A DNA stretch of 13,042 nucleotides. Source: a virus. Its lineage: Duplodnaviria > Heunggongvirae > Uroviricota > Caudoviricetes. This document shows positions 1-13,042 of this stretch, piece after piece. A model generated the notes under the pieces. The model was not told where the DNA came from and searched no databases. It was given only the letters and a program-made list of their open reading frames with translations. The DNA is taken from the IMG/VR virus record IMGVR_UViG_2698536506_000001, positions 1-13,042 of that record; one strand, 5' to 3'. The position numbers were made by a program, and so were the translations under genes. Each line of letters begins with the position of its first letter. Position 1 is the first letter of the stretch.

Positions 1-1
1 G

Positions 2-316
2 GTTTCTTTTAAAGGTTATTACGGTGATCTGGCCATCATGGTGGCGAAAACAACGTATGTTGATGAAAACGGGGATGAGCAGCGTTATCTGCCGGAAGGC
101 ACACTGATTCTTGGAAACACTCAGGTGGAGGGTGTCCGTTGTTATGGCGCAATCCAGGATAACCAGGCGCTGAGTGAAGGGATCACCTCTGCAATTCGTT
201 ATCCGAAACACTGGCTGGAGGTGGGTGATCCTGGTTGCGAATATACCATGACGCAGTCTGCGCCGTTGATGGTGTTGCCGGATCCTGACGCGTTTGTGGT
301 GGTTCAGGTGAAATAA
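2..316 (+). CDS. Major capsid protein, lambda gpE family (C-terminal fragment; 5' end is upstream of the window)
   Basis: Frame is open from position 2 to TAA at 314-316; the track ORF 38..316 is only the first in-frame ATG. Translation ...KGYYGDLAIMVAKTTYVDENGDEQRYLPEGTLILGNTQVEGVRCYGAIQD...IRYPKHWLEVGDPGCEYTMTQSAPLMVLPDPDAFVVVQVK aligns closely with the lambda gpE C-terminus as I recall it (...LGNTQARGLRTYGCIQD...ARYPKNW...FTMIQSAPLMLLADPDEFVSVQLA). Recalled homology, not searched. Confidence 0.8.
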   Translation, partial: VSFKGYYGDLAIMVAKTTYVDENGDEQRYLPEGTLILGNTQVEGVRCYGAIQDNQALSEGITSAIRYPKHWLEVGDPGCEYTMTQSAPLMVLPDPDAFVVVQVK

Positions 317-320
317 GGTC

Positions 321-346
321 AGGCGGGATATTCCCGCCTTTTTCTT
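321..346 (+). terminator. Rho-independent terminator-like hairpin plus T-tract downstream of the capsid gene
   Basis: AGGCGGG (321-327), loop atatt, CCCGCCT (333-339) is a perfect 7-bp GC-rich stem, followed by TTTTTCTTT. Seen directly in the sequence. Confidence 0.55.
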
Positions 347-366
347 TATCGCACGGGAGAGATGTG

Positions 367-732
367 ATGACAAAAGAGCAGATGACGGAACGCCTTCAGG
401 CGCTGGCAGTGATTCTGGGGCGTGAAGCAGATATTTCAGGTTCAAAGGCCGATCTTGAGCAGCGCCTGGCGGAATGGGAAGAGGAGGCCGCCGGATTCGA
501 TGGGGAGGATACCGGGGCGGAAGAGGTGGACAACGATGCATCCGGCGACGGGATGCATTCTGAGCGGGGACTCGTCCGGGTGCGCATGCTGAAAACAGCG
601 CATATGCCAGCCTGTGATGCTGTGACGGGAAAAATGTTGATGTTCGCCCGGGCCTCCAGTGTTGTGCTGGTTAATGAAGCCGCAGTTCCTGCGTTGCTGG
701 CGGACGGTCTGGCAGAAAAAATCCGGGAGTGA
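367..732 (+). CDS. Head DNA-packaging / head-completion protein, lambda FI-like
   Basis: ATG at 367 sits 6 nt after GGGAGA (355-360); GTG at 364 is an alternative start. Position is immediately after the capsid gene, as in lambda. N-terminus MTKEQMTERLQALAVILGRE...GSKADLEQRLAEWEEE resembles recalled lambda FI (MTKDELIARLRSLGEQL...GTKEELALRVAELKEE). Acidic middle region. Confidence 0.6.
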   Translation: MTKEQMTERLQALAVILGREADISGSKADLEQRLAEWEEEAAGFDGEDTGAEEVDNDASGDGMHSERGLVRVRMLKTAHMPACDAVTGKMLMFARASSVVLVNEAAVPALLADGLAEKIRE

Positions 733-1136
733 TGATGTCCGATAATCTGTTCGATCAGGCCATGAGTGATGCGGATGACATCATCCTGGATACGATGGGG
801 ACGGAAATCAGCATATATCCGGGCGGCACGGAAAGAAAAATCCGTGCTGTTTTTGATGCCCCGGCAGATAACACCGGGATGAACACTGGCAGCGGCGAAA
901 TTCGTGATACTGCACCGGTGTTATTTACCCGGAGCGCATGGGTTGCCGGACTGAAAAAATATGACAGGGTCATGATCCACGGCGAACCCTACCAGGTGGT
1001 CGATCCTGGCTGGGATGAGTCAGGCACTGCGGGTCATGGTGTGATTACCATTACTCTTGCGCGGGGAGAACCCGGAAGAAGTACACCCGCCGCCCCTGTC
1101 CGACCGAGTAAACGTTATGACAGTCAGAGAGCATGA
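732..1136 (+). CDS. Head-tail joining protein, lambda FII-like
   Basis: Start ATG 732 overlaps the upstream stop (TGATG); ATG 735 is an alternative. Translation MMSDNLFDQAMSDADDIILDTMGTEISI...IRAVFDAP...PVLFTRS...IHGEPYQVVDPGWDESG follows the pattern of recalled lambda FII (MADFDNLFDAAIARADETIRGYMGTSATI...IRGVFDDP...PSLFVRT...IGEENFWVDRVSPDDGG). Confidence 0.65.
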   Translation: MMSDNLFDQAMSDADDIILDTMGTEISIYPGGTERKIRAVFDAPADNTGMNTGSGEIRDTAPVLFTRSAWVAGLKKYDRVMIHGEPYQVVDPGWDESGTAGHGVITITLARGEPGRSTPAAPVRPSKRYDSQRA

Positions 1137-1839
1137 ACGAAGCACTGTCCGGCAGCGACGGCTGGCACGAAACCTCGTCGTCGATATTGACGAGGATGAT
1201 GTGCTGAAAATTATCGCTAAACTGGGTGGTTCAAAAAGCCAGATCCGTAAAGCCTGGGGCGTGGCGCTGAAAAGAGCCGCGTCCGCACTGCGGATGAAGG
1301 CCATGGCAGAGTTTAAAAAACAGGTTGCGCCACGCAGCCAGAAAATGATCAAAAAACGTGTCCTGAATGCTTTTATCATTCGTCGAAATGGCGATGAGTT
1401 TGATGAGGCAAAGGTGTGGTTTGGCCTGAACGCCATCAAAGTACGTGATTTGCGCGGACGCATCAGTGGGGGACGACGCGGCGAACGCCATCAGTTGCGC
1501 GATGAACGGGGGCGTTTTGCACCGGCTTCCCGCCGCAGGAAAGTGCCGGAGATTCGTTTTAAACCTGCCGGGGAGGCAATACCGGTCACAACCTGGTCAG
1601 GTGAAGAGGCTTTTGTTAATGAGTTTGAGTCTGAAAACCGGCGCGGACGCATTTCACGACGTAAGACGGTACTGGTCAGGCAGGCATCCGGACGACGACG
1701 GGTGCGCGAAGCGGAAATTGATATTTATGAAGCCATGCTGAACCGTATAGAGGATTTTGTTTTCCCTGATGCGGAAGCACTGATCCTGAAAAATTTTGAG
1801 CATGAACTGAAATTCCGGGTATTTAAGGGGATGGAGTGA
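1117..1839 (+). CDS. Hypothetical arginine-rich virion/connector-region protein (about 240 aa); function unassigned
   Basis: Long ORF in the co-directional operon. The track start 1057 is a TTG; the first ATG is 1117 (MTVREHERS...), overlapping the FII-like gene by 20 nt. Contains two Arg-rich blocks sharing an RGRIS motif. Occupies the slot of lambda Z (after FII), but I cannot confirm homology by eye. Confidence 0.5.
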   Translation: MTVREHERSTVRQRRLARNLVVDIDEDDVLKIIAKLGGSKSQIRKAWGVALKRAASALRMKAMAEFKKQVAPRSQKMIKKRVLNAFIIRRNGDEFDEAKVWFGLNAIKVRDLRGRISGGRRGERHQLRDERGRFAPASRRRKVPEIRFKPAGEAIPVTTWSGEEAFVNEFESENRRGRISRRKTVLVRQASGRRRVREAEIDIYEAMLNRIEDFVFPDAEALILKNFEHELKFRVFKGME

Positions 1840-2402
1840 TGGAACCATTGATGATGGGAACCTGGCATCAGGCAGTGATTGACAGTCTGAAACAAATTCC
1901 CTGGGTGGAAGATGCCGATGAGTACCCGGAAAAAGTGACGCAACTGGTGACGCCTGCCGTGTTTGTGGATGTACCCGGATGGGACAAGGCTCAGTTTGCC
2001 GACGGGCAGACACGGGTCACGCTGAAATGCGATCTGTTTGTGGTGACAGACCGGGCCGGGAAGACGGAAAACGTGCCAAAACCGCAGATTTTTGCCCGCT
2101 GTCTGGCGATGGATTTATCTGACTGGATTGATGGAGCCACGTTCGGGCTGGATAACGTTGACCCGGCTGTTTTTATCGATGCTGAGGTGGATACCTTCGA
2201 CCGGCTGCTGGACGACTACATCGTTTTCCGTGTTTCTTTTGAACAGGACATTCCGGTCGGCGAAGATCCGTTTGCGGCTCCGGCAGGTGTGCCGTTACAG
2301 GAAGTCTGGCTGAGTAAAGTACCGGAAACCGGTAAAAAGCATGTGCAGGATTATCGTCTTATCTGGAAAGCGGAGGGCACCGGCGATGAGTCTGGCGGAT
2401 GA
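1839..2402 (+). CDS. Hypothetical protein (about 187 aa), candidate tail-completion / tail-terminator or neck protein by position
   Basis: ATG 1839 overlaps the upstream stop (GTGATG; GTG 1836 is an alternative). Lies between the lambda-type head-completion genes and baseplate gene V, the slot taken by lambda U or P2 R/S. Only weak, unconvincing resemblance to lambda gpU by eye. Confidence 0.5.
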   Translation: MEPLMMGTWHQAVIDSLKQIPWVEDADEYPEKVTQLVTPAVFVDVPGWDKAQFADGQTRVTLKCDLFVVTDRAGKTENVPKPQIFARCLAMDLSDWIDGATFGLDNVDPAVFIDAEVDTFDRLLDDYIVFRVSFEQDIPVGEDPFAAPAGVPLQEVWLSKVPETGKKHVQDYRLIWKAEGTGDESGG

Positions 2403-3009
2403 AGTGGCAGAGTTACGCCGCAGGGTGGCGGACATGGTCCGTCGTGGCGTGGTGGAAGAGGTGATCCCGGGTAACCCGGTGATGGTTCGGGTGGATATCG
2501 GGGATGTGCTTTCGCCGCCGTTGCCCTGGATTCAGATGCAGTCCGGGCGTTACATGCAGGTCAGTAATTACCCGGCACCAGGAGATGCGGTCACGGTGAT
2601 ATCGGAGGCGGGCGATCTGCGTAACGGTCGTGTGTATCCGGGGGCGAATATTGACGCCATTCCTGTACCGACGGGCAGTGAACACGAGCATGTTATTTTG
2701 TTTGATACTGGAACGGAAATCCGTTACGACCGTAAAGCCAATGCCCTGTCCATCACGCTGGCTGAAGGCGGCAGCTATAAAATTACCGGCAGGGGGACGC
2801 TGGACGGTCCGGTGGAAATCACGGATACCCTGACTGTGCAGGGAAAAACGAAGATTAATGCCGATACGCAGGTTATGGGCAATATCGGTGCCTCACAGGA
2901 GATCACCGACAAAACCGGTAGCATGAGTAAAATTCGCGAAATTTATAATACTCATGATCACCCTGGCGACAGCGGGGGAACCACCCGTAAACCTAACCAG
3001 GAAATGTGA
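2386..3009 (+). CDS. V: Baseplate assembly protein V (central spike), P2 gpV family
   Basis: ATG 2386 (MSLADEVAELRR...) is preceded by GGAGGG 7 nt upstream and overlaps the previous gene by 17 nt; the track start 2341 is less likely. About 207 aa, P2 gpV-sized. C-terminal ...HDHPGDSGGTT matches the gpV-family motif I recall (HKHPGDSGGTT). First gene of the V-W-J-I-H-G order. Confidence 0.8.
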   Translation: MSLADEVAELRRRVADMVRRGVVEEVIPGNPVMVRVDIGDVLSPPLPWIQMQSGRYMQVSNYPAPGDAVTVISEAGDLRNGRVYPGANIDAIPVPTGSEHEHVILFDTGTEIRYDRKANALSITLAEGGSYKITGRGTLDGPVEITDTLTVQGKTKINADTQVMGNIGASQEITDKTGSMSKIREIYNTHDHPGDSGGTTRKPNQEM

Positions 3010-3031
3010 ACGCCGCACCGGCGTTTTTTTT
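3010..3031 (+). terminator. Terminator-like hairpin plus T8 tract between V and W
   Basis: ACGCCG (3010-3015), loop CAC, CGGCGT (3019-3024) forms a 6-bp stem, followed directly by eight T residues. Seen directly in the sequence. Confidence 0.45.
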
Positions 3032-3043
3032 CGGAAAAATTTC

Positions 3044-3400
3044 ATGATTGGTATTGATTCCACCACCGGCAGATATCTGCACGGTAACGAACATCTGCGT
3101 CAGTCCGTCACCGATATTTTGTCAACACCAGTCGGCAGCCGGGTACTTCTCAGGGAATACGGCAGCAGGTTGTTCAGTCTGCTTGATAACCCGCAGGATG
3201 ATTTCACACGGGTGAGGATTGTCCGTGAGACGGTTACTGCTCTTGAACGCTGGGAACCGAGACTGACGATCCGCCGTGTGGAGGTGAGCTTCGGCGGTGA
3301 GGGAAATGTCATGTTGACGCTTTTGGGCGTGAATAACGAAACACAGGAAACAATTCGTCTGGAGGAAATCAGAATTGACAACGTCTCAGGCCATTATTGA
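3044..3400 (+). CDS. W: Baseplate wedge protein W (GPW/gp25 family)
   Basis: ATG 3044 (MIGIDSTTGRYLHGNEHLRQSVTDILSTPVGSRV...) gives 118 aa, the P2 gpW size. The track start 2954 would overlap the V 3' end and the hairpin. Position between V and J. Confidence 0.8.
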   Translation: MIGIDSTTGRYLHGNEHLRQSVTDILSTPVGSRVLLREYGSRLFSLLDNPQDDFTRVRIVRETVTALERWEPRLTIRRVEVSFGGEGNVMLTLLGVNNETQETIRLEEIRIDNVSGHY

Positions 3401-4289
3401 TTTGTCCGCGATACCTGTACCGGATGCGGTGGAGGTGCCGGACACCGCTGTGCTGGTCACTCAGATAGTGGCGAAATATCAGGAACTGGACACGTTGTTT
3501 TCGGCCCTGGTGGAATCAGATCCGGCGTATAAATGGGCGGAGGCGCTTGCTTTTCGGGTGGCGCTGATGCGCCAGCAGGTCAATGATGCAGTCCGGGCTG
3601 TACTGCTTGCCAGTGCCCGCAGGAACGATCTGGATCAGATTGGTGCGAATTTTCAGGTGCAACGTCTGGTGATTACTCCGGCAGATGACAGCACTATCCC
3701 GCCCACGCCTGCGGTGTATGAAGATGATGACGCTTTTCGCGAACGTATTCAGTTGTCATGGGCACGACTCAGCACCGCAGGCGCGAAAAACGCATACCAC
3801 TATTTTGCACAGAGTGCCGATCCTGATGTGCTGGATGTGAAAGCCTACGGGCCGGAAACGCATTCACAGGAAGGGCGTGTTTTTCTTTATGTGTTATCGC
3901 GAACCGGAAACGGTACGGCATCGCAACCCCTGCTGGATAAGGTGGCAGCGTCAGTCAATGATGATGAAATTCGACCTCTGACGGATTTTGTCAGTGTCCG
4001 TGCGGCAGAAATTATTCCCTACGATGTGGTTGCAGATATTCATATTCCCTACGGGCTGGATGGTGAACTGGTGATGAAAAATGCCCGTCAGGCGCTGCAG
4101 ACATACACTGACAGTGTTCACCGGATTGGTTCTGTGGCGTCCTGCTCCGGTATGGACGGAGCCCTGCATCAGACGGGGGTGATTACGGTGGCACTGAAAT
4201 CGCCGGTCAGTGATATTGTTCCGGCGATGGGACAGGCTCCATGGTGTCGCTCAGTCACACTGAACAAGGTGGAGACAACCGATGAATGA
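3375..4289 (+). CDS. J: Baseplate assembly protein J
   Basis: TTG start at 3375 with GGAGGA 8 nt upstream, overlapping the W 3' end. N-terminus ...IIDLSAIPVPDAVEV... resembles recalled P2 gpJ (MPIIDLNQLPAPDVVEEL...). 304 aa against about 302 for P2 J. Confidence 0.75.
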   Translation: MTTSQAIIDLSAIPVPDAVEVPDTAVLVTQIVAKYQELDTLFSALVESDPAYKWAEALAFRVALMRQQVNDAVRAVLLASARRNDLDQIGANFQVQRLVITPADDSTIPPTPAVYEDDDAFRERIQLSWARLSTAGAKNAYHYFAQSADPDVLDVKAYGPETHSQEGRVFLYVLSRTGNGTASQPLLDKVAASVNDDEIRPLTDFVSVRAAEIIPYDVVADIHIPYGLDGELVMKNARQALQTYTDSVHRIGSVASCSGMDGALHQTGVITVALKSPVSDIVPAMGQAPWCRSVTLNKVETTDE

Positions 4290-4863
4290 CATCATCAGAA
4301 GCATACTTCCTGTCAGCGCCAGCCGGGCAGAGCGGGTGGTGGACAGTACCGCCGGTGATATGCTGGCGGAAATCGCGGTCTGTCTGATCCGCTATGTAAA
4401 AAATCCCGATTTATGTCCGACGGAATTGCTGCCATGGCTGGCCTGGGAAATGTCGGTGGACACCTGGAATGAATACTGGACGGAGGCGGAAAAAAGAGCG
4501 GCGATAAAACGTGCCGCTTATATCCATCGTCACCGGGGAACAAAAGCCGCCCTGAACGAATCACTGACAGACAGCCCGTTCCGGTCACAGATTGTGGAGT
4601 GGTATGAGCAGACGCCACCAGGTGAACCCTATACCTTCCGGTTGAATGTGGAGCAGAAGGATTTACCGGTACAGATGAATGACTATCAGGATCTGAAGCA
4701 TGCGGTGCTCCGTGCCAAAAATCTGCGCAGCTGGTTCAGTGTTCATCTTTACGGAAACAGCAGGGGGCGTGTTTTTGGTTACGGTTATGTGATGGCAACA
4801 GAAAAAGTCAGTGGTATCAGTGCTGATGATACCCGGGGTATCCGGGATGAGTGGGTGGAGTGA
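4282..4863 (+). CDS. I: Tail protein I (baseplate)
   Basis: ATG 4282 overlaps the J stop (ATGAATGA). 193 aa. Position between J and H, with a conserved-looking LLPWLAWE.SVD.W block. Confidence 0.75.
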   Translation: MNDIIRSILPVSASRAERVVDSTAGDMLAEIAVCLIRYVKNPDLCPTELLPWLAWEMSVDTWNEYWTEAEKRAAIKRAAYIHRHRGTKAALNESLTDSPFRSQIVEWYEQTPPGEPYTFRLNVEQKDLPVQMNDYQDLKHAVLRAKNLRSWFSVHLYGNSRGRVFGYGYVMATEKVSGISADDTRGIRDEWVE

Positions 4864-4866
4864 GTT

Positions 4867-6240
4867 GTGGGTATGCATGGACTAGTTTTGACAACAGCCG
4901 GGGCAGCCGAAATTGAAGCTGCATATCATGCCGGTGAGGTGGTGACCATCAGTCAGGTGATGATTGGTGACGGGGGCGGGAAAACACTGCCCTCAACGCC
5001 GGATGAGATGGCGGCGATGGTCATGTTGTGTGGTGAGTTTGGTCGGGAGCCCTTTTCAGGCGGTGTGGTGGACGAAGGTTTTATCAGCGGAGATATTGTC
5101 ATTGACTGTCAGTCATACCCGGGTAAGACCCTGCGTGAGCTGGGCATGGTGAGTCATCGTGGTACGCTGATTGCGTATGGTCGTTATCCGGATACGTATT
5201 TACCGGCACAGACGGATTCCGTTATCAAGGAGGTGATACTGACACTGGTTCTTGCTCTTACACATACACAGAGTGTGACGCTGGAGGTGGATCCTCACAG
5301 GGCGATTATCACGCAGGAGGCCGGAGATAAACGCTATCTGCGCATCGGCGAGAATCTTGCCGATGTGGAAGATAAAGATGAAGCGGTTGATAACCTCGGA
5401 TTAAAACCTACGGTGGATAAAGCGAAAAATGCCGTTCAGCGTGATGGTGACACCATGACCGGGGAGCTGAAAATTGGCACGGTGAATGCGCTGCGAATTT
5501 TCGACGATGCTTTTGGCCTGATTTTTCGTCGTTCGGAAGAATATCTTCATTTTATCCCGACGTCTGAAGGACGGGGCGAAAACGGTGATATCGGCCCATT
5601 AAGGCCATTTGCTATAAATCTGAGAACAGGCGCTATATCAGTCAGCCACGGTGCAAAAATTGATGGTGGGCTGGCGCTTGGTACGAATAACGCATTGGGT
5701 GGTAATTCTATTACTCTCGGTGATAACGATACAGGTATAAAACAAAACGGCGACGGCATTCTGGATGTTTATGCTAATAATCAGCGCGTATTTCGCTTTC
5801 AGAATGGAGTTGCTATTGCTTTTAAAAACGTTCAGGCCGGGGATAGTAAAAAATTCACGCTATCCAGCTCCAACAGCTCCACGAAGAACGTAGGGTTTAA
5901 TTTATGGGGTAATCCATCCAGACCTGTAGTTGCAGAACTTGGTGATGATTCCGGCTGGCATTTCTACAGTCAGAGAAATACAGACGATAGCGTCACATTC
6001 GCTGTAAATGGGCAGATAACTCCATCAAACTACGGAAACTTTGATGCCCGCTATCAGACCAAAACAGGCGGCGTGCAGGATGTACGTCTGGGAAGCGCCA
6101 TTGGTATTGGACGCGGGGGAAATGCGCCATCAGGTCATTTACTGAGTGGTGTTGATGGCGGTGAAAGTGTGAACTGGGCCAATGCACGCCCGGTGCAGGT
6201 TCTGATTAATGGCGTCTGGAGAAATGTAGCGAGTTTGTAA
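4867..6240 (+). CDS. H: Tail fibre protein H (receptor-binding)
   Basis: GTG 4867 (or ATG 4873) starts 4-10 nt after the I stop. N-terminus ...LVLTTAGAAEIEAA...IGDGGGKTLP resembles recalled P2 gpH (...TVITTAGAAKLAAA...VGDGGGKLPVP). C-terminal about 230 aa (ALGGNSITLGDNDTGIKQNGDGILDVYANNQRVFRFQNGVAIAFKNVQAGDSKKF...NLWG...RPVVAELGDDSGWHFYSQRNTD) matches the conserved fibre C-terminal domain shared by P2 H, Mu S and related fibres. Confidence 0.85.
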   Translation: MGMHGLVLTTAGAAEIEAAYHAGEVVTISQVMIGDGGGKTLPSTPDEMAAMVMLCGEFGREPFSGGVVDEGFISGDIVIDCQSYPGKTLRELGMVSHRGTLIAYGRYPDTYLPAQTDSVIKEVILTLVLALTHTQSVTLEVDPHRAIITQEAGDKRYLRIGENLADVEDKDEAVDNLGLKPTVDKAKNAVQRDGDTMTGELKIGTVNALRIFDDAFGLIFRRSEEYLHFIPTSEGRGENGDIGPLRPFAINLRTGAISVSHGAKIDGGLALGTNNALGGNSITLGDNDTGIKQNGDGILDVYANNQRVFRFQNGVAIAFKNVQAGDSKKFTLSSSNSSTKNVGFNLWGNPSRPVVAELGDDSGWHFYSQRNTDDSVTFAVNGQITPSNYGNFDARYQTKTGGVQDVRLGSAIGIGRGGNAPSGHLLSGVDGGESVNWANARPVQVLINGVWRNVASL

Positions 6241-6242
6241 TC

Positions 6243-6788
6243 ATGATGCACTTAAAAAATATTACGGTACAAAACCCTAAAACAATTGAGCAATACCAGC
6301 TGGCGCGACAGCATAAATTTTTATTGTGGCTGTTCTCAGATGATGGACAGGAATGGCACGAAGCCCAGGAAAAATTTCTACCAGACACCCTGAAAGTTAT
6401 TTATGTTAAAACTGGCGAAGTGGTCTGGGTCGGAAAAGACATCACCTCAATCTGCCCGGAAAATAAAAGCGTGATTGAGTTGCCGGATATTACCGCTAAT
6501 CGTCGCATTGAAGCATCAGGCTACTGGTTTTACCGCAATGATGAATTTGTTTTCGACTACAAACTTAAAGCGGAAGACGAGCGTGATGCCCTGTTAAAAC
6601 AGGTCAGTATCATGACCAGCGAATGGGAAAAAGACCTGCTGCTGGGATTAATCAGCGACGAAGACAGGGAAAAGCTGAAAGCGTACCGCATTTACGCGAA
6701 ATCGTTGCAGGCGATGGATTTCAGTGCCATCAACGATAAAACCTCATATAACGCCATTGAGTGGCCAGTACCTCCACAAAACACCTGA
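6243..6788 (+). CDS. G: Tail fibre assembly chaperone (P2 gpG / Tfa family)
   Basis: ATG 6243 lies 2 nt after the H stop. MMHLKNITVQNPKTIEQYQLARQ...LWLFSDDGQEWHEA...ELPDITANRR resembles recalled P2 gpG (MQHLKNIKSGNPKTKEQYQL...LWSEDGKNWYEE...EVPDITSNRR). 181 aa. Confidence 0.85.
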   Translation: MMHLKNITVQNPKTIEQYQLARQHKFLLWLFSDDGQEWHEAQEKFLPDTLKVIYVKTGEVVWVGKDITSICPENKSVIELPDITANRRIEASGYWFYRNDEFVFDYKLKAEDERDALLKQVSIMTSEWEKDLLLGLISDEDREKLKAYRIYAKSLQAMDFSAINDKTSYNAIEWPVPPQNT

Positions 6789-6806
6789 AAAAGAAGTAAA
6801 TCAACT

Positions 6807-6830
6807 GACCGCCTCAGGGGCGGTTTTTTT
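6807..6830 (+). terminator. Rho-independent terminator-like hairpin between the fibre-chaperone gene and the sheath gene
   Basis: CCGCC (6809-6813), loop tcagg, GGCGG (6819-6823), extendable by A-T and G-T pairs, followed by seven T residues (6824-6830). Confidence 0.55.
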
Positions 6831-6843
6831 ATGGGAGAAATGT

Positions 6844-8319
6844 ATGTCCGGACTACATGGTGTGGAAACCATTGAACTGACGACAGGCACGGTTGCCGTG
6901 CAGACCGTCTCCACGGCAGTGATTGGCCTCGTGGGGACAGCGCCGGACGCCTCCGGCGGTGTGTGTGCTTCCGGTACTGCCGGATCATGGTTGTTGAGTT
7001 CCGCGCTGGATTTTACAGCGAAAAAAGCCGGGCGGTCCGGCAATGAGATTTCAGTTGTGGCCAACGGAAGCACGCAGCAAAACGCAGAGACAACCGCGGC
7101 TCTGGAGGGAAACACCCTGACGATCACACTGGGCACAGATGAACATGGTGAGAGGAATGCCACTGCGTCACGTGTGAAGGAGGTTGTGAATGCGCTGGAG
7201 GATTCACCGGTGATGGCCGATACCAGCATGCTGAATGCAGATTCTGTCGGGGAAGGAGTGGTATCTCCCTTTACCCTGACGTTGTCCGGCGGTGAGGATG
7301 AGGCATTTCCGGTTAATACGCCGGTGGTGGTGGCGGGGGCACTGACGCAGGCCGGAAAGCTGGGGGCTTCCGGAACGCTGTATCCTGCCCTGCGTGATAT
7401 TTTTGACCAGACCGGTGCGCTGGTGATTGTGGTACGTGCGGAAAGCAAACCGAAAGCGAAGGAGGCAGAACAGCGTGCCGCAGTGATTAAGGCCATGGAA
7501 GCTCTGACGAAGAGCAAAGGCGTAACAGGCTACCAGCCGCGTATTCTTGTCGCCACTGGCTACAGCGAGGATGATGGTGTGGCAAAGGCGCTGGAAACGT
7601 ATGCCGCGAAACTGCGGGCTGTTGCCTATATTGACTCCCCCTCAATGGTAACGCCGCAGGATGTGGTTCAGCGCCGGACGTTATTTGGTGGGCGTGTTGA
7701 ACTGCTTCGTCCGCGCGTGTCGGTGACGGATGACAGCGGACAAACAGTGTTTCGCCCGTATTCGGCACGCGCTGCCGGACTGCGTGCCCGTATTGATTAT
7801 GAAAAAGGATGGTGGTGGTCCAAATCAAATCAGGACGTGATGAATATCACCGGTCTTGAGCAGGTGGATACATTTATTCTCGGGGAGCAGAACTGCACGG
7901 CAAATCTGCTGAACATGGAAAACATCTCCACCATTATTCGTCATGACGGTTTTAAACACTGGGGTAACCGCCTGTGCACATCTCATAGCCAGTTGCGCTT
8001 TGAGTCTGTGCGCCGTACGGCTGATGTGATTGAAGACAGTGTTCAGGAATCCATGTTGCCTTATGTTGACCGTCCGATTGATCGGGATGTTGCGGACGAT
8101 ATTCTCGGCAGTATTAATGCCTACATGCGCCAGCTTAAAAATCTGGGCGCGATCCACGGTGGTAGCGCATGGCTGAACGACGAACTGAATACAGCAGAAA
8201 CCCTGGCTGCCGGGCAGTTGTATATCGACTATGACTTCGGGCCGAAGTCACCACTGGAACGCCTGACGCTGCGGACAATGATCAACAATAAACTGGCACA
8301 GGAGGAACTGACAGTATGA
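6844..8319 (+). CDS. FI: Contractile tail sheath protein (P2 FI family)
   Basis: ATG 6844 is 5 nt after GGGAGA. The track start 6724 lies inside the tfa gene and spans the terminator, so it is rejected. N-terminus MSGLHGVETIELTTGTVAVQTVSTAVIGLVGTAPDASGG resembles P2 FI ([39 protein letters not shown]). C-terminal blocks GLRARIDYEKGW, IRHDGFKHWGNRLCT and NTAETLAAGQLYIDYDFGP...PLERLTLR match the sheath family. 491 aa. Confidence 0.85.
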   Translation: MSGLHGVETIELTTGTVAVQTVSTAVIGLVGTAPDASGGVCASGTAGSWLLSSALDFTAKKAGRSGNEISVVANGSTQQNAETTAALEGNTLTITLGTDEHGERNATASRVKEVVNALEDSPVMADTSMLNADSVGEGVVSPFTLTLSGGEDEAFPVNTPVVVAGALTQAGKLGASGTLYPALRDIFDQTGALVIVVRAESKPKAKEAEQRAAVIKAMEALTKSKGVTGYQPRILVATGYSEDDGVAKALETYAAKLRAVAYIDSPSMVTPQDVVQRRTLFGGRVELLRPRVSVTDDSGQTVFRPYSARAAGLRARIDYEKGWWWSKSNQDVMNITGLEQVDTFILGEQNCTANLLNMENISTIIRHDGFKHWGNRLCTSHSQLRFESVRRTADVIEDSVQESMLPYVDRPIDRDVADDILGSINAYMRQLKNLGAIHGGSAWLNDELNTAETLAAGQLYIDYDFGPKSPLERLTLRTMINNKLAQEELTV

Positions 8320-8834
8320 TGTCATGCGAAAAAAAACTGCTACGGGCATGGGCGCTCTTTCTGCCGGGTGGTATTCGCCTTCAGGGGGCACATGAATACA
8401 CGCCTCCGGCCATCAATATCACGAAGGTGGACATCAAAACCGGTGCGATGGATGCGCCGGTGTCAGTGGATGACGGTATGGAGGCGCTGACCTGCTCGTT
8501 TAAAATTTACGGATACGACGTGGCCATACTGACCCTGCTTGGATTGCAGGCAGGGATTTATTCGCCAGAAATTGTTGTCCGTCAGGCGTATCAGGTGGGC
8601 GGTGCAACAAGCGGTCTGGTGGAAACCCTTCAGGGGATGATCACCAGTATCACGCCGGATGCGCGTCCGTCCACCTCGCAGGCGGAAGCAGCGGTGTCGG
8701 TGGAAATGTCACTGAGTTATTACCGCCAGGCTGTCGATGGACTGGAAACCATCTGCATTATTCCGGAGCAGTTTGTACGGCGCATTAACGGTGTGAATGT
8801 GCTGTCGGATCTGAAAAAAATTATCCGTGTGTGA
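8316..8834 (+). CDS. FII: Tail tube protein (P2 FII family)
   Basis: ATG 8316 overlaps the sheath stop (ATGA), with AGGAGG 10 nt upstream. 172 aa, the same length as P2 FII. Sits immediately after the sheath gene. Confidence 0.8.
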   Translation: MMSCEKKLLRAWALFLPGGIRLQGAHEYTPPAINITKVDIKTGAMDAPVSVDDGMEALTCSFKIYGYDVAILTLLGLQAGIYSPEIVVRQAYQVGGATSGLVETLQGMITSITPDARPSTSQAEAAVSVEMSLSYYRQAVDGLETICIIPEQFVRRINGVNVLSDLKKIIRV

Positions 8835-8854
8835 GCCGGAGAAGTGGTCATTCA

Positions 8855-8880
8855 GGCGGCTCAGGCCGCCTTTTCTTTTT
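8855..8880 (+). terminator. Terminator-like hairpin plus T-tract after the tube gene
   Basis: GGCGGC (8855-8860), loop tcag, GCCGCC (8865-8870), followed by TTTTCTTTTT (8871-8880). Confidence 0.5.
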
Positions 8881-8894
8881 AAGAGGAAATCAAT

Positions 8895-9197
8895 ATGCCA
8901 GAGATAAACAGTATTCCCTGCAGCAGCGTGGAGATTGTGTTATCCGTGCCGTATGTCACTGCGTCAGGTCAGACAATCTCGCATGTCACCATGCGTGCAC
9001 CCACCGTCCGCGATCGTCTGTTACATCGCCGGAGTACCAAGCCGGAAGCAGAAGCCGATCTGGATATGATAGCCGGCCTGTGCGGAATGGATGCGGCGGA
9101 CATGATGAATATGGAAGCGTGTGATTACCTGTCCCTGGAGCGGCAGTTTAATGTTTTTTTGCTGCCGCCGGTCAGGCGGAAGAAGACAGCATCCTGA
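8895..9197 (+). CDS. E: Tail assembly chaperone E (zero-frame product)
   Basis: ATG 8895 with AAGAGGAAA upstream. 100 aa. Sits between the tube and tape-measure genes and carries a slippery heptamer near its 3' end. Confidence 0.7.
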   Translation: MPEINSIPCSSVEIVLSVPYVTASGQTISHVTMRAPTVRDRLLHRRSTKPEAEADLDMIAGLCGMDAADMMNMEACDYLSLERQFNVFLLPPVRRKKTAS

Positions 9198-9334
9198 CAG
9201 CGATACGGCGCGCCGGTGCCTGGTTCGGGTGGTCTCCCGGAGATGTGATGGCACTGCCGTATGCAGATTTTGTGTCAATGATGCTGGAGGAATCGGAAGA
9301 GAGGCGGCGACGTTATGGCAACGGTGGGCGATAA
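8895..9334 (+). CDS. E': Tail assembly chaperone E+E' (-1 frameshift fusion product, about 146 aa)
   Basis: After a -1 slip at 9155-9161 the frame reads FFAAAGQAEEDSILTAIRRAGAWFGWSPGDVMALPYADFVSMMLEESEERRRRYGNGGR then stop, overlapping the tape-measure start by 20 nt. Same arrangement as P2 E/E'. Inferred, not experimentally shown. Confidence 0.55.
9155..9161 (+). promoter_or_regulatory. Candidate -1 programmed ribosomal frameshift site (slippery heptamer T TTT TTG)
   Basis: Zero-frame codons GTT TTT TTG (9153-9161) give the heptamer T_TTT_TTG. The -1 frame is open from here to TAA at 9332-9334. Confidence 0.6.
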
Positions 9335-10970
9335 CCTGAAAGCGAATATCAGGATCGGCGGCACGATAGATCCGTCGTGGAAAAAATCGGTTGATGGACT
9401 GAAGCACGGATTATCAGGGGCAACGCAGGAAGTGGCTCGCCTGACTCGCCAGCAGGATGTACTGAAACGAAAAATTCAGGCTGGCGTACTGGCAGGGCAG
9501 GATATTACTGAACTGCGAAAGCAGTATGAAAAGCTGGGCAAAAAAATTCATGATGCCACCGGAGAGCAGGATAAATTTAACCGTAAGCTGGCACGTGCGG
9601 AACGTCTGGAACGCTGGAAAGGGCGTGGAAAGACCGCTCTGAAAGCGGGGTTAGGGCTTTCGGTTGGGGGGGGACTGACACTGGCAGGCGCTGCCGGTAC
9701 AGCACTTAGCCGGAACAGTGAAACTGCAGAGCGGGCAGGGATAGCCCGGAGTTACGGTGTGGATTATGAGACGTATGCAGCGTGGGATTCGCTGGGTAAG
9801 CAGATGGGGCTGAACGGGGAAAACTTCGGGGATCTGTTTGAGGAGTACCGTAACAAGGTTTTTGATGATGATAATGGCGCATCGGATAAAGGTGCCATAC
9901 AGCAGGTCTTCGGGGCGCTGGGGCTGAAAACCGGGGTGATGGCGGGAAAAAACAACCAGGAGCAGGTTGAATTTCTTTTTGACCGATTGCTGCAGGTGAA
10001 GGATGAACAAAAGGCTGCCGGGATGGCGGATGCATTGTTTGGTGGTGAGGGTAATAAGATCCTGACCTGGATACGTCTGTCAGGAAAAACTTACCGGGAG
10101 CTTATTGAGGAGCAGAAGCGCTATAACCTGGTGACCAGGGAAGGGGCGGATGGTGCCGTCCGGGGACATATCGCCGTCTCAAACCTCACCGGTGTTCTGG
10201 GTTCGTCCATTGATGAAATCTGTGGACAGCTGGGGAAAGAGCTGGCACCGAATATTCAGCAGGTCACGGACGACCTGGCGGACTGGTTTAAAAACGGCGG
10301 GCTGGAAAAAATCAATACATTTATCAGAGAGGACGCGCTGCCGATGTTGATCAAGGTGACGGCCTGGGCGTGGAATTTTGGAAAAGTCATTGCCGGGCTC
10401 ACTGAAAAGGCCATCGAGTGGGGGCTGGCTGAAGATCCACGGAGTGACCGGCGTGAGGTGCTGGAATATCTGGCAAAAACAGGCTCACCAGAGCTGGCAA
10501 GGGCAGTGGCGAAGAGGAACGGGCAGGATAAATGGTTTGATGATCAGCTTAAAAAAAATCCCGATCTGACGAAGCAGGTTGTGAAGGCGTATACAGACAC
10601 ACGCGGTTTCCTGAGTGATGACGATAAAAAATTTGAGGCATCCCTCGAGCCTTTTCTGGGGCCAAAAGACGATCCGGACTTTGACGGATGGGAAAAGAAA
10701 GCGCTTGATGTCCTCGCGAAGTATGACACCCCACCCGCTACAAAACAGGGGCAGGAAAAAACGGATCCTCTTTCTGCGCTTCACTACGTTCCGGGCAGTA
10801 TCAGCCAGGTGGAAGTAAAACCCACGTATCAGATACGGGCTGAATTTAACCTCACCCAGAAGCCCGGCGAGGATGCCGGACAGCTGGCAGACAGGGTGAC
10901 GAAAAATCTGGGTGATATTGATTTTGGCCAGCGGGCCAGCATGACCGACAGTTATGCATTCTGGGGGTGA
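9315..10970 (+). CDS. T: Tail tape measure protein
   Basis: 551-aa ORF immediately downstream of the frameshifted chaperone pair. Contains a Gly/Ala-rich hydrophobic stretch (LKAGLGLSVGGGLTLAGAAGTAL) typical of tape measure proteins, and coiled-coil-like charged regions. Confidence 0.8.
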   Translation: MATVGDNLKANIRIGGTIDPSWKKSVDGLKHGLSGATQEVARLTRQQDVLKRKIQAGVLAGQDITELRKQYEKLGKKIHDATGEQDKFNRKLARAERLERWKGRGKTALKAGLGLSVGGGLTLAGAAGTALSRNSETAERAGIARSYGVDYETYAAWDSLGKQMGLNGENFGDLFEEYRNKVFDDDNGASDKGAIQQVFGALGLKTGVMAGKNNQEQVEFLFDRLLQVKDEQKAAGMADALFGGEGNKILTWIRLSGKTYRELIEEQKRYNLVTREGADGAVRGHIAVSNLTGVLGSSIDEICGQLGKELAPNIQQVTDDLADWFKNGGLEKINTFIREDALPMLIKVTAWAWNFGKVIAGLTEKAIEWGLAEDPRSDRREVLEYLAKTGSPELARAVAKRNGQDKWFDDQLKKNPDLTKQVVKAYTDTRGFLSDDDKKFEASLEPFLGPKDDPDFDGWEKKALDVLAKYDTPPATKQGQEKTDPLSALHYVPGSISQVEVKPTYQIRAEFNLTQKPGEDAGQLADRVTKNLGDIDFGQRASMTDSYAFWG

Positions 10971-11654: not shown

Positions 11655-12721
11655 ATGAATATCAGCCGGATTTCAGTCTGACGGTGGAAGGCGAGGATAT
11701 CACGAAAGCAATAAAACGCGGACTGGCTGAACTGCGTTATACCGATAATGGTGCTGCCACAAAGCGGGCTGATGAGTTAATGATAACGCTGTTCAGTGAA
11801 ACGCTGGCATTGCCACCGAAAGGCGCAGTATTAACGCTGGGGCTGGGGTTTAACGGACGTCTGGTGAATAAGGGTAGCTTTACTGTCTGTCAGGTGGCAA
11901 GCGGTGGCCCTCCCCGCCGGATCACCATTTATGCCACAGCAGCCCCCATGAATGCGTCCAGGCATGGTGCAGATGTGACTGCACTGAAAACCCGCGCCTT
12001 CAGCGATGTCACGCTGGGTGACCTGGTAAAAACGATCGCCACTGAAAATAATCTGGTGGCGCGGGTATCTCCGGTACTGGAGGAAATTCGTATTCCGTGG
12101 GTGATGCAGTCATCTGAGTCGGATGCGTCCCTGCTTTCCCGGCTTGCAGGGATGTACGGTGCCACCAGTAAACCGACGAACGGTTACTGGTTATTTCTGG
12201 AGTATGGTGCGTCGCAGAGTACCGGAGGCAGGGATGCCCCAGTGATGACCATCACACCGGATATGGTGTCAGACTGGGATTACCGGGAGGGCGATCGGCA
12301 GGGGGCATCTGGAGGCGGAAAAGGGGGAAAGGTTGGTGTCAGGTACTTTACTCCGTCTGATGGTCGCACGCGTGAACTTAAAGTGGATGTGGAGTCCACA
12401 GACAAGCGGCATCCCTTCACCCAGCCAGACCAGAGCACGGCAGAACATTGTGCACAGTCGAAGGTAAAGCGGGTGCAGAAAGCGGGGCGTCAGATGACGA
12501 TAACGCTGCCCTGCCGACCGGTATTGCTGAAAGCGGGGGCGGAAGTGCGCTTTATCACACGGGGCTTCGGGGTACGGGAGGACCATAACTGGCAGGCAGA
12601 GTCAGTGGAATTTTCGTTGTCACCGGGGCAGGGATTTTCGCTGAATCTGTCGCTGGCCACGGATATTTCTGCAAAGGGGAAAGCCAGTGGCAAGAAAAAA
12701 GGCGTCAATTATTTTGGTTAA
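11645..12721 (+). CDS. D: Tail protein D (late control gene D family)
   Basis: ATG 11645 overlaps the X 3' end. 358 aa against 387 for P2 gpD. Terminal gene of the tail module. Confidence 0.8.
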   Translation: MGLNEYQPDFSLTVEGEDITKAIKRGLAELRYTDNGAATKRADELMITLFSETLALPPKGAVLTLGLGFNGRLVNKGSFTVCQVASGGPPRRITIYATAAPMNASRHGADVTALKTRAFSDVTLGDLVKTIATENNLVARVSPVLEEIRIPWVMQSSESDASLLSRLAGMYGATSKPTNGYWLFLEYGASQSTGGRDAPVMTITPDMVSDWDYREGDRQGASGGGKGGKVGVRYFTPSDGRTRELKVDVESTDKRHPFTQPDQSTAEHCAQSKVKRVQKAGRQMTITLPCRPVLLKAGAEVRFITRGFGVREDHNWQAESVEFSLSPGQGFSLNLSLATDISAKGKASGKKKGVNYFG

Positions 12722-12745
12722 TGTTTTCTGAATCAGGAAATAAAA

Positions 12746-13042
12746 ATGTCTGTATTAATTTCGGGTGTGCTGACGGATGGCGCGGGACTCCCCATGTCCG
12801 GATACCATATTATTCTGAAAGCCAGACAGAATACATCCGTAGTGGTCATGAGAACGGTGGCGACAGTGGTGACAGGTCCGGCAGGAGAATATGCTTTTGA
12901 AGCTCAGACCGGAAAATATGACGTTTATCTTCGGTCGTGTATTGAAAGGGAATACTGTGTCGGTAATATTTCGGTTTACCACGATTCAACGCCCGGCACG
13001 CTGAATGATTTTCTGACAGCCATCGATGAAGGCGACCTCAAG
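12746..13042 (+). CDS. stf: Side tail fibre protein, lambda Stf-like N-terminal domain (5' partial; continues beyond the window)
   Basis: ATG 12746, 8 nt after AGGAAA. Open for 99 codons to the window edge, so not in the supplied track. Translation MSVLISGVLTDGAGLPMSGYHIILKARQNTSVVVMRTV...GEYAFEAQTGKYDVYL...GNISVYHDSTPGTLNDFLTAIDEGD aligns with the recalled lambda Stf N-terminus (MAVKISGVLKDGTGKPVQNCTIQLKARRNSTTVVVNTV...GRYSMDVEYGQYSVIL...GTITVYEDSQPGTLNDFLCAMTEDD). Confidence 0.7.
   Translation, partial: MSVLISGVLTDGAGLPMSGYHIILKARQNTSVVVMRTVATVVTGPAGEYAFEAQTGKYDVYLRSCIEREYCVGNISVYHDSTPGTLNDFLTAIDEGDLK

Follow-up and report, generated by a model that had tools for sequence, protein, structure and literature searches.

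In phage lambda the neck genes follow the order FII-Z-U. In P2, whose tail genes resemble those of the prophage described here, the functional counterparts are gpR (the terminator) and gpS (tail completion), encoded in the reversed order, R then S, and the neck has no FII-type ring; Mu lacks an FII-type stopper ring as well. The R2-pyocin of Pseudomonas aeruginosa is headless, and the gene for its collar, PA0615, lies directly upstream of V-W-J-I-H in the PAO1 R2-pyocin cluster. Terminators of myophages and CIS have an extended C-terminus that holds the last sheath ring (PMC11915804), and the terminator-sheath handshake of P2 is reportedly unlike that of the pyocin collar (bioRxiv 10.64898/2026.09.14.750843). 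The tail completion protein (TCP) is the least understood component of long tails. TCPs are described as having long N- and C-terminal helices around a beta region (PMC11661146), and their location varies by phage: in the neck lumen for 80alpha, at the tail tip for T5, unseen in lambda, SPP1, Mu and P2. The structure of gp51 from the Staphylococcus phage 80alpha (PDB 9mu2_P) is, according to its authors, the first of any TCP.

The DNA analysed here (the window, 13,042 nucleotides) carries two genes, ORF-A and ORF-B, whose products RefSeq labels "hypothetical protein". In our reading they belong to a temperate myovirus prophage of Escherichia and encode, of a standard lambda-type ("type 1") neck, the half on the side of the tail; we would put the probability of this reading at roughly 0.85.

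Gene order and coding status at the head-tail junction

All features discussed lie on the plus strand. The window opens with the 3' end of a lambda gpE-type major capsid gene, cut at the window edge (1..316; Pfam Phage_cap_E, 2e-17); lambda E and the full-length capsid homologue of E. coli C5 have 59% identity. There follow a homologue of the DNA-packaging protein FI (367..732; Pfam Packaging_FI, 7.5e-14; phrog_92; 26% identity to lambda FI) and a head-tail joining or head closure protein of the lambda gpFII type, Hc1 (732..1136; Pfam Phage_attach, 2e-13; phrog_82, 1e-29), whose product matches lambda gpFII in the PDB (1k0h, E = 1.9e-7). ORF-A (1117..1839, 240 aa) and ORF-B (1839..2402, 187 aa) come next. 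Downstream are genes for the baseplate spike or assembly protein V (2386..3009; phrog_9992, 2e-24, with weak Pfam Phage_base_V and Apex matches; 28% identity to P2 gpV) and for the baseplate proteins W (gp25-like), J and I (3044..4863; Pfam GPW_gp25, Baseplate_J and Tail_P2_I; 34-41% identity to their P2 counterparts). Past I come fibre, fibre assembly protein, sheath, tube, U, X and D; the tail sheath (6844-8319; Pfam Phage_sheath_1 / 1C) finds the pyocin R2 sheath PA0622 as its best PDB match (E = 3.7e-51), and the tail tube (8316-8834) matches Pfam Phage_tube. A sequence-only reading of this DNA had placed two genes, one of about 240 aa and Arg-rich, the other of about 187 aa, between lambda-type E/FI/FII and a P2/R-pyocin-type contractile tail. 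The Pfam matches of the flanks bear this out, and the lengths, coordinates and Arg content (15.8% in ORF-A) are confirmed.

The frames are tightly packed. ORF-A runs from an ATG at 1117 to a TGA at 1837-1839 and overlaps the FII gene (stop at 1134-1136) by 20 nt. At its other end lies a TGATG junction, in which the A of the ORF-B ATG (1839) is the last base of the ORF-A stop codon, and this start/stop overlap suggests translational coupling. ORF-B ends with a TGA at 2400-2402, and the ATG of gpV (2386) is placed 17 nt within it. Another ATG, at 1133, is ruled out as the start of ORF-A because it is in a different frame.

Pfam has no match for either ORF, and in strain C5 the prophage region is complex, with other prophage remnants next to it, so it might be supposed that these are chance ORFs, or genes decaying in a defective prophage, one or both of them non-functional. 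The substitution pattern argues otherwise. Relative to the 96% identical prophage of E. coli C5, dN/dS is 0.06 for ORF-A (15 synonymous and 3 non-synonymous differences) and 0.025 for ORF-B (11 and 1), as against 1.3-1.4 when the ORF-A sequence is read in its two other frames as a control, which points to strong purifying selection on both genes. The overlapping start and stop codons with their hint of coupling, the homologues numbering in the hundreds, and the occurrence of the same gene pair in isolated phages tell in the same direction, and we regard the non-gene explanation as extremely improbable. Of 5426 complete E. coli genomes, 105 contain the region, at 80-99% identity. A megablast search of window positions 1-3100 against a phage collection gave zero matches; at the DNA level, the element is known from prophages only.

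ORF-B and the R2-pyocin collar

ORF-B belongs to phrog_1072 (8.6e-51), a family labelled "unknown", and a fragment of PA0615 matches the same PHROG at 1.8e-27. A search of the PDB with the ORF-B family profile yields a sole match, 6u5f "Collar PA0615" (E = 1.3e-7, envelope 3-166 of 171). The AF2 model of ORF-B (pLDDT 81.6), with helices at residues 6-18 and 82-97 and strands at 40-52, 58-71, 111-117 and 127-139, has the fold pattern of a terminator, an antiparallel sheet against two helices. In Foldseek, terminators or caps make up nearly all of the best 22 matches of this model (E < 1e-3), and more than 20 terminator or cap chains receive a probability of 1.00. The matches include Mu gp37 (9khy/9lj8), A-1(L) gp7, T5 p142, lambda gpU, GTA and the monocin cap, with the R2-pyocin collar (6u5j/6u5f, TM 0.62-0.70) the best structural match. 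By family and by predicted fold, then, ORF-B is a tail terminator. The Pfam terminator families Phage_tail_U, Tail_completion_gp17 / DUF3168, Phage_Mu_Gp37 and P2_Phage_GpR do not match it at E <= 0.1, and among 38 members of its family the sole match to a terminator family is to Mu_Gp37 (2 members, E = 0.053). DUF3168 also appears in one UniRef name within the family.

Lambda gpU and Mu gp37 have the alpha/beta terminator fold in common with ORF-B. Lambda gpU further resembles it in being acidic (pI 4.05, compared with 4.25 for ORF-B) and in its slot after Z. The two differ in that gpU shows no significant sequence similarity to ORF-B (hhalign of the ORF-B family alignment with gpU gave no signal, a weak test with a single-sequence template) and, at 131 aa, is without the C-terminal arm of ORF-B.

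This C-terminal extension (approximately residues 140-187, 2256..2399) reaches about 45-55 residues past gpU, aligns with the C-terminus of PA0615, and has predicted strands at 155-159 and 172-177 (pLDDT 55-70). It carries the conserved residues P162..G165..H168..D171-Y172, and the motif, PxxGxxHxxDY, is found in PA0615 too. In Mu gp37 the extension is of the sort by which terminators hold the last sheath ring (PMC11915804), and by analogy that of ORF-B is a putative sheath-binding arm; the partner sheaths of ORF-B and PA0615 are of the same type. The identity of the two proteins is only 18-20%, with an N-terminal half far less conserved than the C-terminal half. They differ also in what they have to bind, for PA0615, in a headless pyocin, can do without a face for FII, whereas ORF-B, encoded after FII and the TCP, must join a head.

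ORF-A and the lambda gpZ family

ORF-A aligns through residues 15-239 to positions 4-194 of 199 in phrog_27 (1.1e-26). This family, labelled "tail completion or Neck1 protein", also holds lambda gpZ (3.2e-69), and the "minor tail protein Z" of Wolbachia phage WO matches it at 6e-33. Lambda gpZ and ORF-A are alike in their slot between FII and the terminator, in fitting phrog_27 over their full length, and in being very basic (pI 12.0 and 11.0, Arg 14.6% and 15.8%, respectively). The 38 Arg residues of ORF-A, which has a net charge of +23, are concentrated at its centre, where residues 115-197 (nt 1459-1707) are 25% Arg. The differences are that gpZ has 192 aa, not 240, that it serves a siphovirus tail and ORF-A a contractile one, and that direct similarity between them is not significant.

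The relationship can be followed through intermediates. An exhaustive HMMER search finds 181 relatives of ORF-A, many of them 180-200 aa long. ORF-A itself has no match to Pfam PF06763 (Minor_tail_Z; gathering score 23.9 bits), and its family offers at best one match in 19 members, at E = 0.021; the intermediates P0127 (34.0 bits), P0157 (30.1) and P0145 (27.3) score above the gathering threshold. With ORF-A below that threshold and the intermediates above it, membership of Minor_tail_Z is transitive only. Lambda gpZ scores 11.9 bits with a broadened profile built free of gpZ, compared with 6.0 bits or less for 200 shuffles; with an HMM of the ORF-A family alone it does not rise above shuffled controls, and hhalign of the ORF-A family alignment with gpZ, again a weak test on a single-sequence template, gives no signal. 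Searching PDB sequences with the ORF-A profile returns only spurious matches to repeat proteins and ribosomal proteins, and the PDB copy searched holds no solved structure of lambda gpZ. The predicted structure of ORF-A, a beta region between long N- and C-terminal helices, would fit the published description of TCPs. Its similarity to 80alpha gp51 is weak and comes from a low-confidence model; gp51, unlike ORF-A, is a member of the HK97 gp10 family, has about 115 aa, and belongs to a headful-packaging siphovirus. At the level of PHROG membership, as judged from sequence profiles, ORF-A is a remote lambda gpZ-type tail completion protein.

The sequence-only reading had left both genes unassigned, and this does not survive the full-length placement of ORF-A in phrog_27 and of ORF-B in the PHROG of PA0615 and the terminator superfamily. 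Its suggestion that they occupy the slots of lambda Z and U or of P2 R and S holds for the lambda slots. The P2 pair, which like ORF-A and ORF-B is found upstream of V-W-J-I-H, is not supported by sequence: gpR and gpS belong to different PHROGs (phrog_65 and phrog_26), and hhalign of the ORF-A family with gpS and of the ORF-B family with gpR gives probabilities below 1% (a weak test, as the templates are single sequences).

The phrog_27 label also names Neck1, and ORF-A might accordingly be a structural neck ring ("Neck1", a collar or a sheath-terminator ring) between FII and the terminator instead of a low-copy protein of the lumen. Gene order usually mirrors the order of parts in the particle (PMC11784142), and genetic work has treated P2 gpS as a sheath terminator (summarised in PMC11784142). 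However, no TCP ring is visible in any of the neck structures solved for lambda, SPP1, Mu, P2 and other myophages, those TCPs that have been located (80alpha lumen, T5 tip) are monomeric, ORF-A is outside the gpS PHROG with hhalign against gpS negative, and a net charge as high as that of ORF-A is easier to reconcile with surroundings of DNA or tape measure than with a ring. A ring is thus very unlikely, and we retain the lumenal tail completion protein.

Part of the extra length of ORF-A is a basic insertion at about residues 119-145 (1471..1551), inside the Arg-rich centre, with the motif RHxLRDxxGRF. The clade of the window differs from lambda gpZ by this conserved insertion and about 13 more residues. 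ORF-A of the window and its counterparts in yong2 and EcoM-569R10 carry it, while Valp1, the WO "Z" protein, the short gpZ-like proteins and lambda gpZ do not. Residues H125, R128 and G132 are invariant across the family. As Valp1 and WO lack the insertion, a general adaptation of myophages is ruled out as its explanation.

The four-gene block and the proposed neck

FII, ORF-A, ORF-B and V form a fixed block that is inherited together. The order is kept in all 17 related enterobacterial loci with sufficient upstream DNA (17 of 19 loci), and V follows ORF-B in every locus compared. It recurs in EcoM-569R10, Hafnia phage yong2, Citrobacter phage Chris1, Vibrio phage Valp1 and Wolbachia phage WO. 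The "connector/baseplate" module of WO, and likewise yong2, Chris1 and Valp1, has an FII-like protein, a Z-like protein, an ORF-B homologue and V in the order of the window, at 24-53% identity; all four are phages already described. WO and Valp1 also have the lambda-type W-portal-C-D-E head; the WO terminator is missing the C-terminal PxxGxxHxxDY motif. The phages yong2 and Chris1 differ in their tail gene order and in their head, which has a fused Clp protease-capsid. Homology to known families, with the same gene order in a described lineage, is largely in evidence, fully so for ORF-B and for ORF-A as remote and transitive homology only.

There are several reasons why ORF-A and ORF-B might have been special adaptors that attach a head of siphovirus lineage to a contractile tail at this particular mosaic junction, as the sequence-only reading had it. 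Both lie exactly between lambda-like and P2-like genes, both are "hypothetical" in RefSeq and without Pfam matches, and ORF-B must fit two kinds of neighbour, one of FII type above it and, below, a sheath of P2/pyocin type. In EcoM-569R10 the pair has also diverged faster than its neighbours (26-29% identity, compared with 47-63%). But both proteins fall in universal neck families, and around the block the two head types (lambda C/D/E or fused Clp protease-capsid) and the two tail gene orders occur in all four combinations. Two of the related loci (L014 and L015) have lambda-type heads and yet an ORF-A nearer to the yong2 form (66-70%). The arrangement, shared with Valp1 and WO, is an old one. 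A block that stays constant while heads and tail orders vary means that ORF-A and ORF-B are not seam-specific adaptors and that the exchange points lie outside the block. We consider dedicated adaptors very unlikely; that the two are head-tail junction (neck) proteins, as the same reading had supposed, is upheld.

For the standard neck preferred here, we infer the following oligomeric states, contacts and position of ORF-A. A hexamer of ORF-B would sit on top of the finished tube and stop polymerisation of tube and sheath, its extended C-terminal arm gripping the last sheath ring. The gpFII hexamer, which closes the head filled with DNA, would dock on the upper face of ORF-B, gpFII being the head-side ring and the docking site for the tail. 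ORF-A, low-copy and very basic, would be added to the tail end, most probably in the neck lumen; there it would meet the packaged DNA at its end as well as the N-termini of the tape measure, whose gene is at 9315-10970, and would make the joined particle infectious. This position is an extrapolation, since TCP location differs between phages. Around the block, upstream head modules and downstream tail gene arrangements are exchanged.

The finding is an annotation gap and not a new adaptor, because the families are known neck families and the gene block is common to many prophages: ORF-A and ORF-B are divergent versions of two standard neck parts. The phrog_1072 family ("unknown function"), which hundreds of enterobacterial prophages and WO carry, can now be named as a tail terminator, given that the structure of one relative, the R2-pyocin collar, is solved. 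What looks like a lambda/P2 seam is no recent junction in need of special adaptors, and has a fixed FII-Z-U-V block in its middle. FII, TCP, terminator and V may represent a self-contained, portable "neck cassette" that fits P2/R-pyocin-type contractile tails to different head modules; the R-pyocin collar may come from this phage terminator lineage, not from a P2 gpR-type terminator; and the enterobacterial ORF-A insertion could be a new contact to the DNA end or the tape measure. Joined together, these three proposals are tentative, and we think it doubtful that all hold. This divergent ORF-A with its insertion could serve to locate a TCP in a phage with a contractile tail, though the case for choosing it is not compelling; if the proposals are true, the insertion might make the tail completion protein of a contractile tail easier to find.

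Two neck genes in a single late operon

The entire window is a single late operon, on the + strand, of a prophage. ORF-A (ATG 1117, stop codon 1837-1839, + strand, 240 aa) and ORF-B (ATG 1839, stop codon 2400-2402, + strand, 187 aa) are preceded by the end of a lambda E-type capsid gene, FI and FII, and followed by V, W/gp25, J, I, a tail-collar fibre, a fibre assembly protein, sheath, tube, tail chaperone, tape measure, U, X and D. Packing is tight: ORF-A opens 20 nt ahead of the end of FII, its TGA shares one base with the ATG of ORF-B, and gpV starts 17 nt before ORF-B ends. (The longest gpV ORF, 2341-3009, opens at ATG 2341, which would make the overlap with ORF-B 62 nt; in homologues and in RefSeq the start is ATG 2386.) ORF-A has 38 Arg (15.8%, and 25% within residues 115-197), a pI of 11.0 and a net charge of +23; ORF-B is acidic (pI 4.25). 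RefSeq labels both hypothetical, and a Pfam scan matched neither. A search of 5426 complete E. coli genomes finds the region in 105, chromosomal in every case, at 80-99% identity. When compared with the copy in strain C5, which is 96% identical, ORF-A has a dN/dS of 0.06 and ORF-B one of 0.025; ORF-A taken out of frame in this comparison gives 1.3-1.4. Coordinates and dN/dS thus confirm that two real genes, under selection, lie between lambda-like head genes and a contractile tail.

Other features of the operon can be read from the same DNA. G+C-rich hairpins with T runs, resembling intrinsic terminators, follow the capsid gene (321-349), gene V (3008-3034) and the tube gene (about 8853-8880); such late-operon hairpins may balance the output of strongly expressed proteins (capsid, tube) against that of downstream ones, though 1-3400 holds five terminator-like hairpins against 3.3 +/- 1.6 in shuffled sequence, no clear excess. 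The tail chaperone gene (8895-9197) contains GTTTTTTTG, with a slippery run at about 9154-9161, and is overlapped by an ORF in another frame (9121-9339) that runs beyond its stop; the layout of 8895-9339 is that of the programmed frameshifts of P2 E/E+E' and lambda G/GT. Elsewhere G+C is about 0.53, but at 5500-6500, where the tail fibre gene (4867-6240) has its distal half and the fibre assembly gene (6243-6788) follows, it falls to 0.45-0.46. The dip points to a host-range cassette exchanged horizontally; most relatives have nothing that matches the fibre tip. A 59-aa ORF (12721-12900), its ATG overlapping the stop codon of hub gene D, had no match in a Pfam scan; in C5 the matching position is followed by a gene for a tail-fibre N-terminal domain.

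ORF-B and the tail terminators

ORF-B clearly adds a member to the terminator family and belongs to the subfamily of the R2-pyocin collar. A family profile of 38 members, searched against all PDB sequences, has one match, "Collar PA0615" of R2 pyocin (6u5f/6u5j, E 1.3e-7), and the alignment includes a C-terminal motif, PxxGxxHxxDY, common to ORF-B and PA0615. ORF-B (8.6e-51), its homologue in Wolbachia phage WO (5.9e-52) and an 84-residue fragment of PA0615 (1.8e-27) all match phrog_1072 ("unknown function"), and therefore belong to one PHROG family. The AlphaFold2 model of ORF-B is good (pLDDT 81.6, pTM 0.68), and its best Foldseek matches include the pyocin collar (E 1e-7, TM 0.62-0.70), the Mu terminator (9khy, 9lj8), the gp7 terminator of cyanophage A-1(L), T5 p142, lambda gpU (3fz2, 3fzb, 8iyd), the GTA terminator and the monocin and diffocin caps. 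(The WO homologue, KX522565 8983-9456, is truncated to 157 aa and lacks the C-terminal motif. WO and Vibrio phage Valp1, at 10011-10301 in the latter, have a PAAR gene after V; the window has none.)

In published structures, the terminators of myophages and of contractile injection systems have a gpU-like body in common, extended at the C-terminus by a stretch that becomes part of the beta-sheet in the last sheath ring (PMC11915804; PMC11784142). The C-terminal extension of ORF-B (about residues 140-187) is predicted, at lower confidence, as two strands, which fits an arm that might become ordered only upon binding. The best solved relative of the window's sheath protein is the pyocin R2 sheath (E 3.7e-51), and that of its FII protein is lambda gpFII (E 1.9e-7). 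On the simplest reading, a hexamer of ORF-B would cap tube and sheath and offer the face bound by the FII ring of the filled head. P2 differs: its terminator gpR (phrog_65) and completion protein gpS (phrog_26) fall in other PHROGs than ORF-B and ORF-A and show no profile similarity to them, the order of the two genes is opposite, the neck has no FII-type ring, and the terminator-sheath handshake is reportedly unlike that of the pyocin collar (bioRxiv 10.64898/2026.09.14.750843).

ORF-A and the gpZ family

Residues 15-239 of ORF-A match phrog_27 ("tail completion or Neck1 protein") at 1.1e-26, and the same family takes in lambda gpZ (3.2e-69) and a WO gene annotated "minor tail protein Z" (6.4e-33). 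Run exhaustively over 1.84 billion representatives with HMMER, the ORF-A family profile picked up 181 relatives, many of 180-200 aa and aligned in two stretches because they lack the central insertion of ORF-A. Ten of these shorter proteins were scanned against Pfam: three score above the Minor_tail_Z gathering threshold, and another three match that family weakly. The link to gpZ itself is weak: the ORF-A family profile alone does not find lambda gpZ, hhalign of the family against the single gpZ sequence was negative, and a broadened profile scores gpZ at 11.9 bits, where none of 200 shuffles exceeds 6.0 bits. Membership of the gpZ family is thus transitive. The assignment to the tail completion proteins (TCPs) is supported by the gene slot, identical in lambda (FII-Z-U for FII-A-B), by the charge pattern (gpZ pI 12.0 and gpU pI 4.05, ORF-A 11.0 and ORF-B 4.25), and by a predicted beta-rich centre between long N- and C-terminal helices; TCPs have been described with such helix-flanked architecture, gpZ having an extra apical beta domain (PMC11661146). 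ORF-A belongs to the gpZ family of tail completion proteins as a remote and divergent member. The sequence-only reading was right to suspect neck proteins in the Z/U slots, and both genes prove assignable where it had found no convincing match.

Alignments of the ORF-A clade show a conserved basic insertion (about residues 119-145, motif RHxLRDxxGRF, with H125, R128 and G132 invariant) in the window, Hafnia phage yong2 and E. coli phage EcoM-569R10, with about 13 further residues in the window's own clade. It is absent from Valp1, WO, the short gpZ-like proteins and lambda gpZ in these alignments; since Valp1 and WO do without it, contractile tails do not require it in general. In 80alpha, a single TCP copy lies in the neck lumen, its apical loop capping the end of the DNA, and is paired with the tape-measure N-termini (PMC11661146). 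Lambda without gpZ makes normal-looking particles with about 500-fold lower infectivity (PMC11784142; PMC11661146). In T5 the TCP has been placed on the tail tip, and it is unseen in structures of lambda, SPP1, Mu and P2 (PMC11784142; PMC11915804; bioRxiv 10.64898/2026.09.14.750843). From the observations in 80alpha, lambda and T5 we propose that ORF-A may be a low-copy lumenal protein, the least secure step of the explanation, whose basic apex, enlarged by the insertion, would face the DNA end.

A conserved block within the mosaic

Relatives were searched by tblastn with every protein of the C5 prophage, and a scan covering a single genome per species gave 19 loci, all from Enterobacterales. 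The order FII-A-B-V is found in 17 of the 19, those with enough upstream DNA; one enterobacterial locus (L027) has this order but two adjacent ORF-B-type matches, and one 2-kb contig holds A-B-V only. Heads are of the lambda C/D/E type in the window, Serratia (L014), Erwinia (L015), Cedecea (L026), Valp1 and WO, and of another type, with a fused Clp protease-capsid gene, in yong2, Chris1 and most loci. The tail order is V-W-J-I-...-sheath-tube-...-D in the window, Serratia, Cedecea and L027, and V-sheath-tube-...-D-W-J-I in all other loci, Erwinia included. All four combinations of head type and tail order occur. ORF-A and ORF-B do not track head type: Serratia and Erwinia have a yong2-like ORF-A (66-70%) despite their lambda-type heads. 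(In C5, NZ_CP010122, the prophage lies in a nested or tandem region, adjoining, at 1-10300 and 32600-43121 of the locus examined, on one side a Mu-like element with Mor, GemA, a MuB-like ATPase, Mu transposase and a repressor, and on the other further tail-fibre and baseplate J remnants in reverse orientation.)

Since both head types and both tail orders vary around a constant FII-A-B-V, ORF-A and ORF-B are not adaptors made for one junction, as had been suggested. Both sit at the centre of a conserved block of neck and spike genes, and exchange has occurred on its two sides, upstream of FII and downstream of V. Judged by their best solved relatives, FII is lambda-like, ORF-A gpZ-like, and ORF-B and the sheath R-pyocin-like. 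WO and several isolated phages already show the window's architecture, and the WO literature counts these neck genes in a "connector/baseplate" module (PMC9203015). The picture of the mosaic is corrected accordingly, and a family so far without a label gains a functional name: phrog_1072, which holds PA0615 and the WO gene upstream of baseplate V, could be relabelled from "unknown function" to tail terminator.
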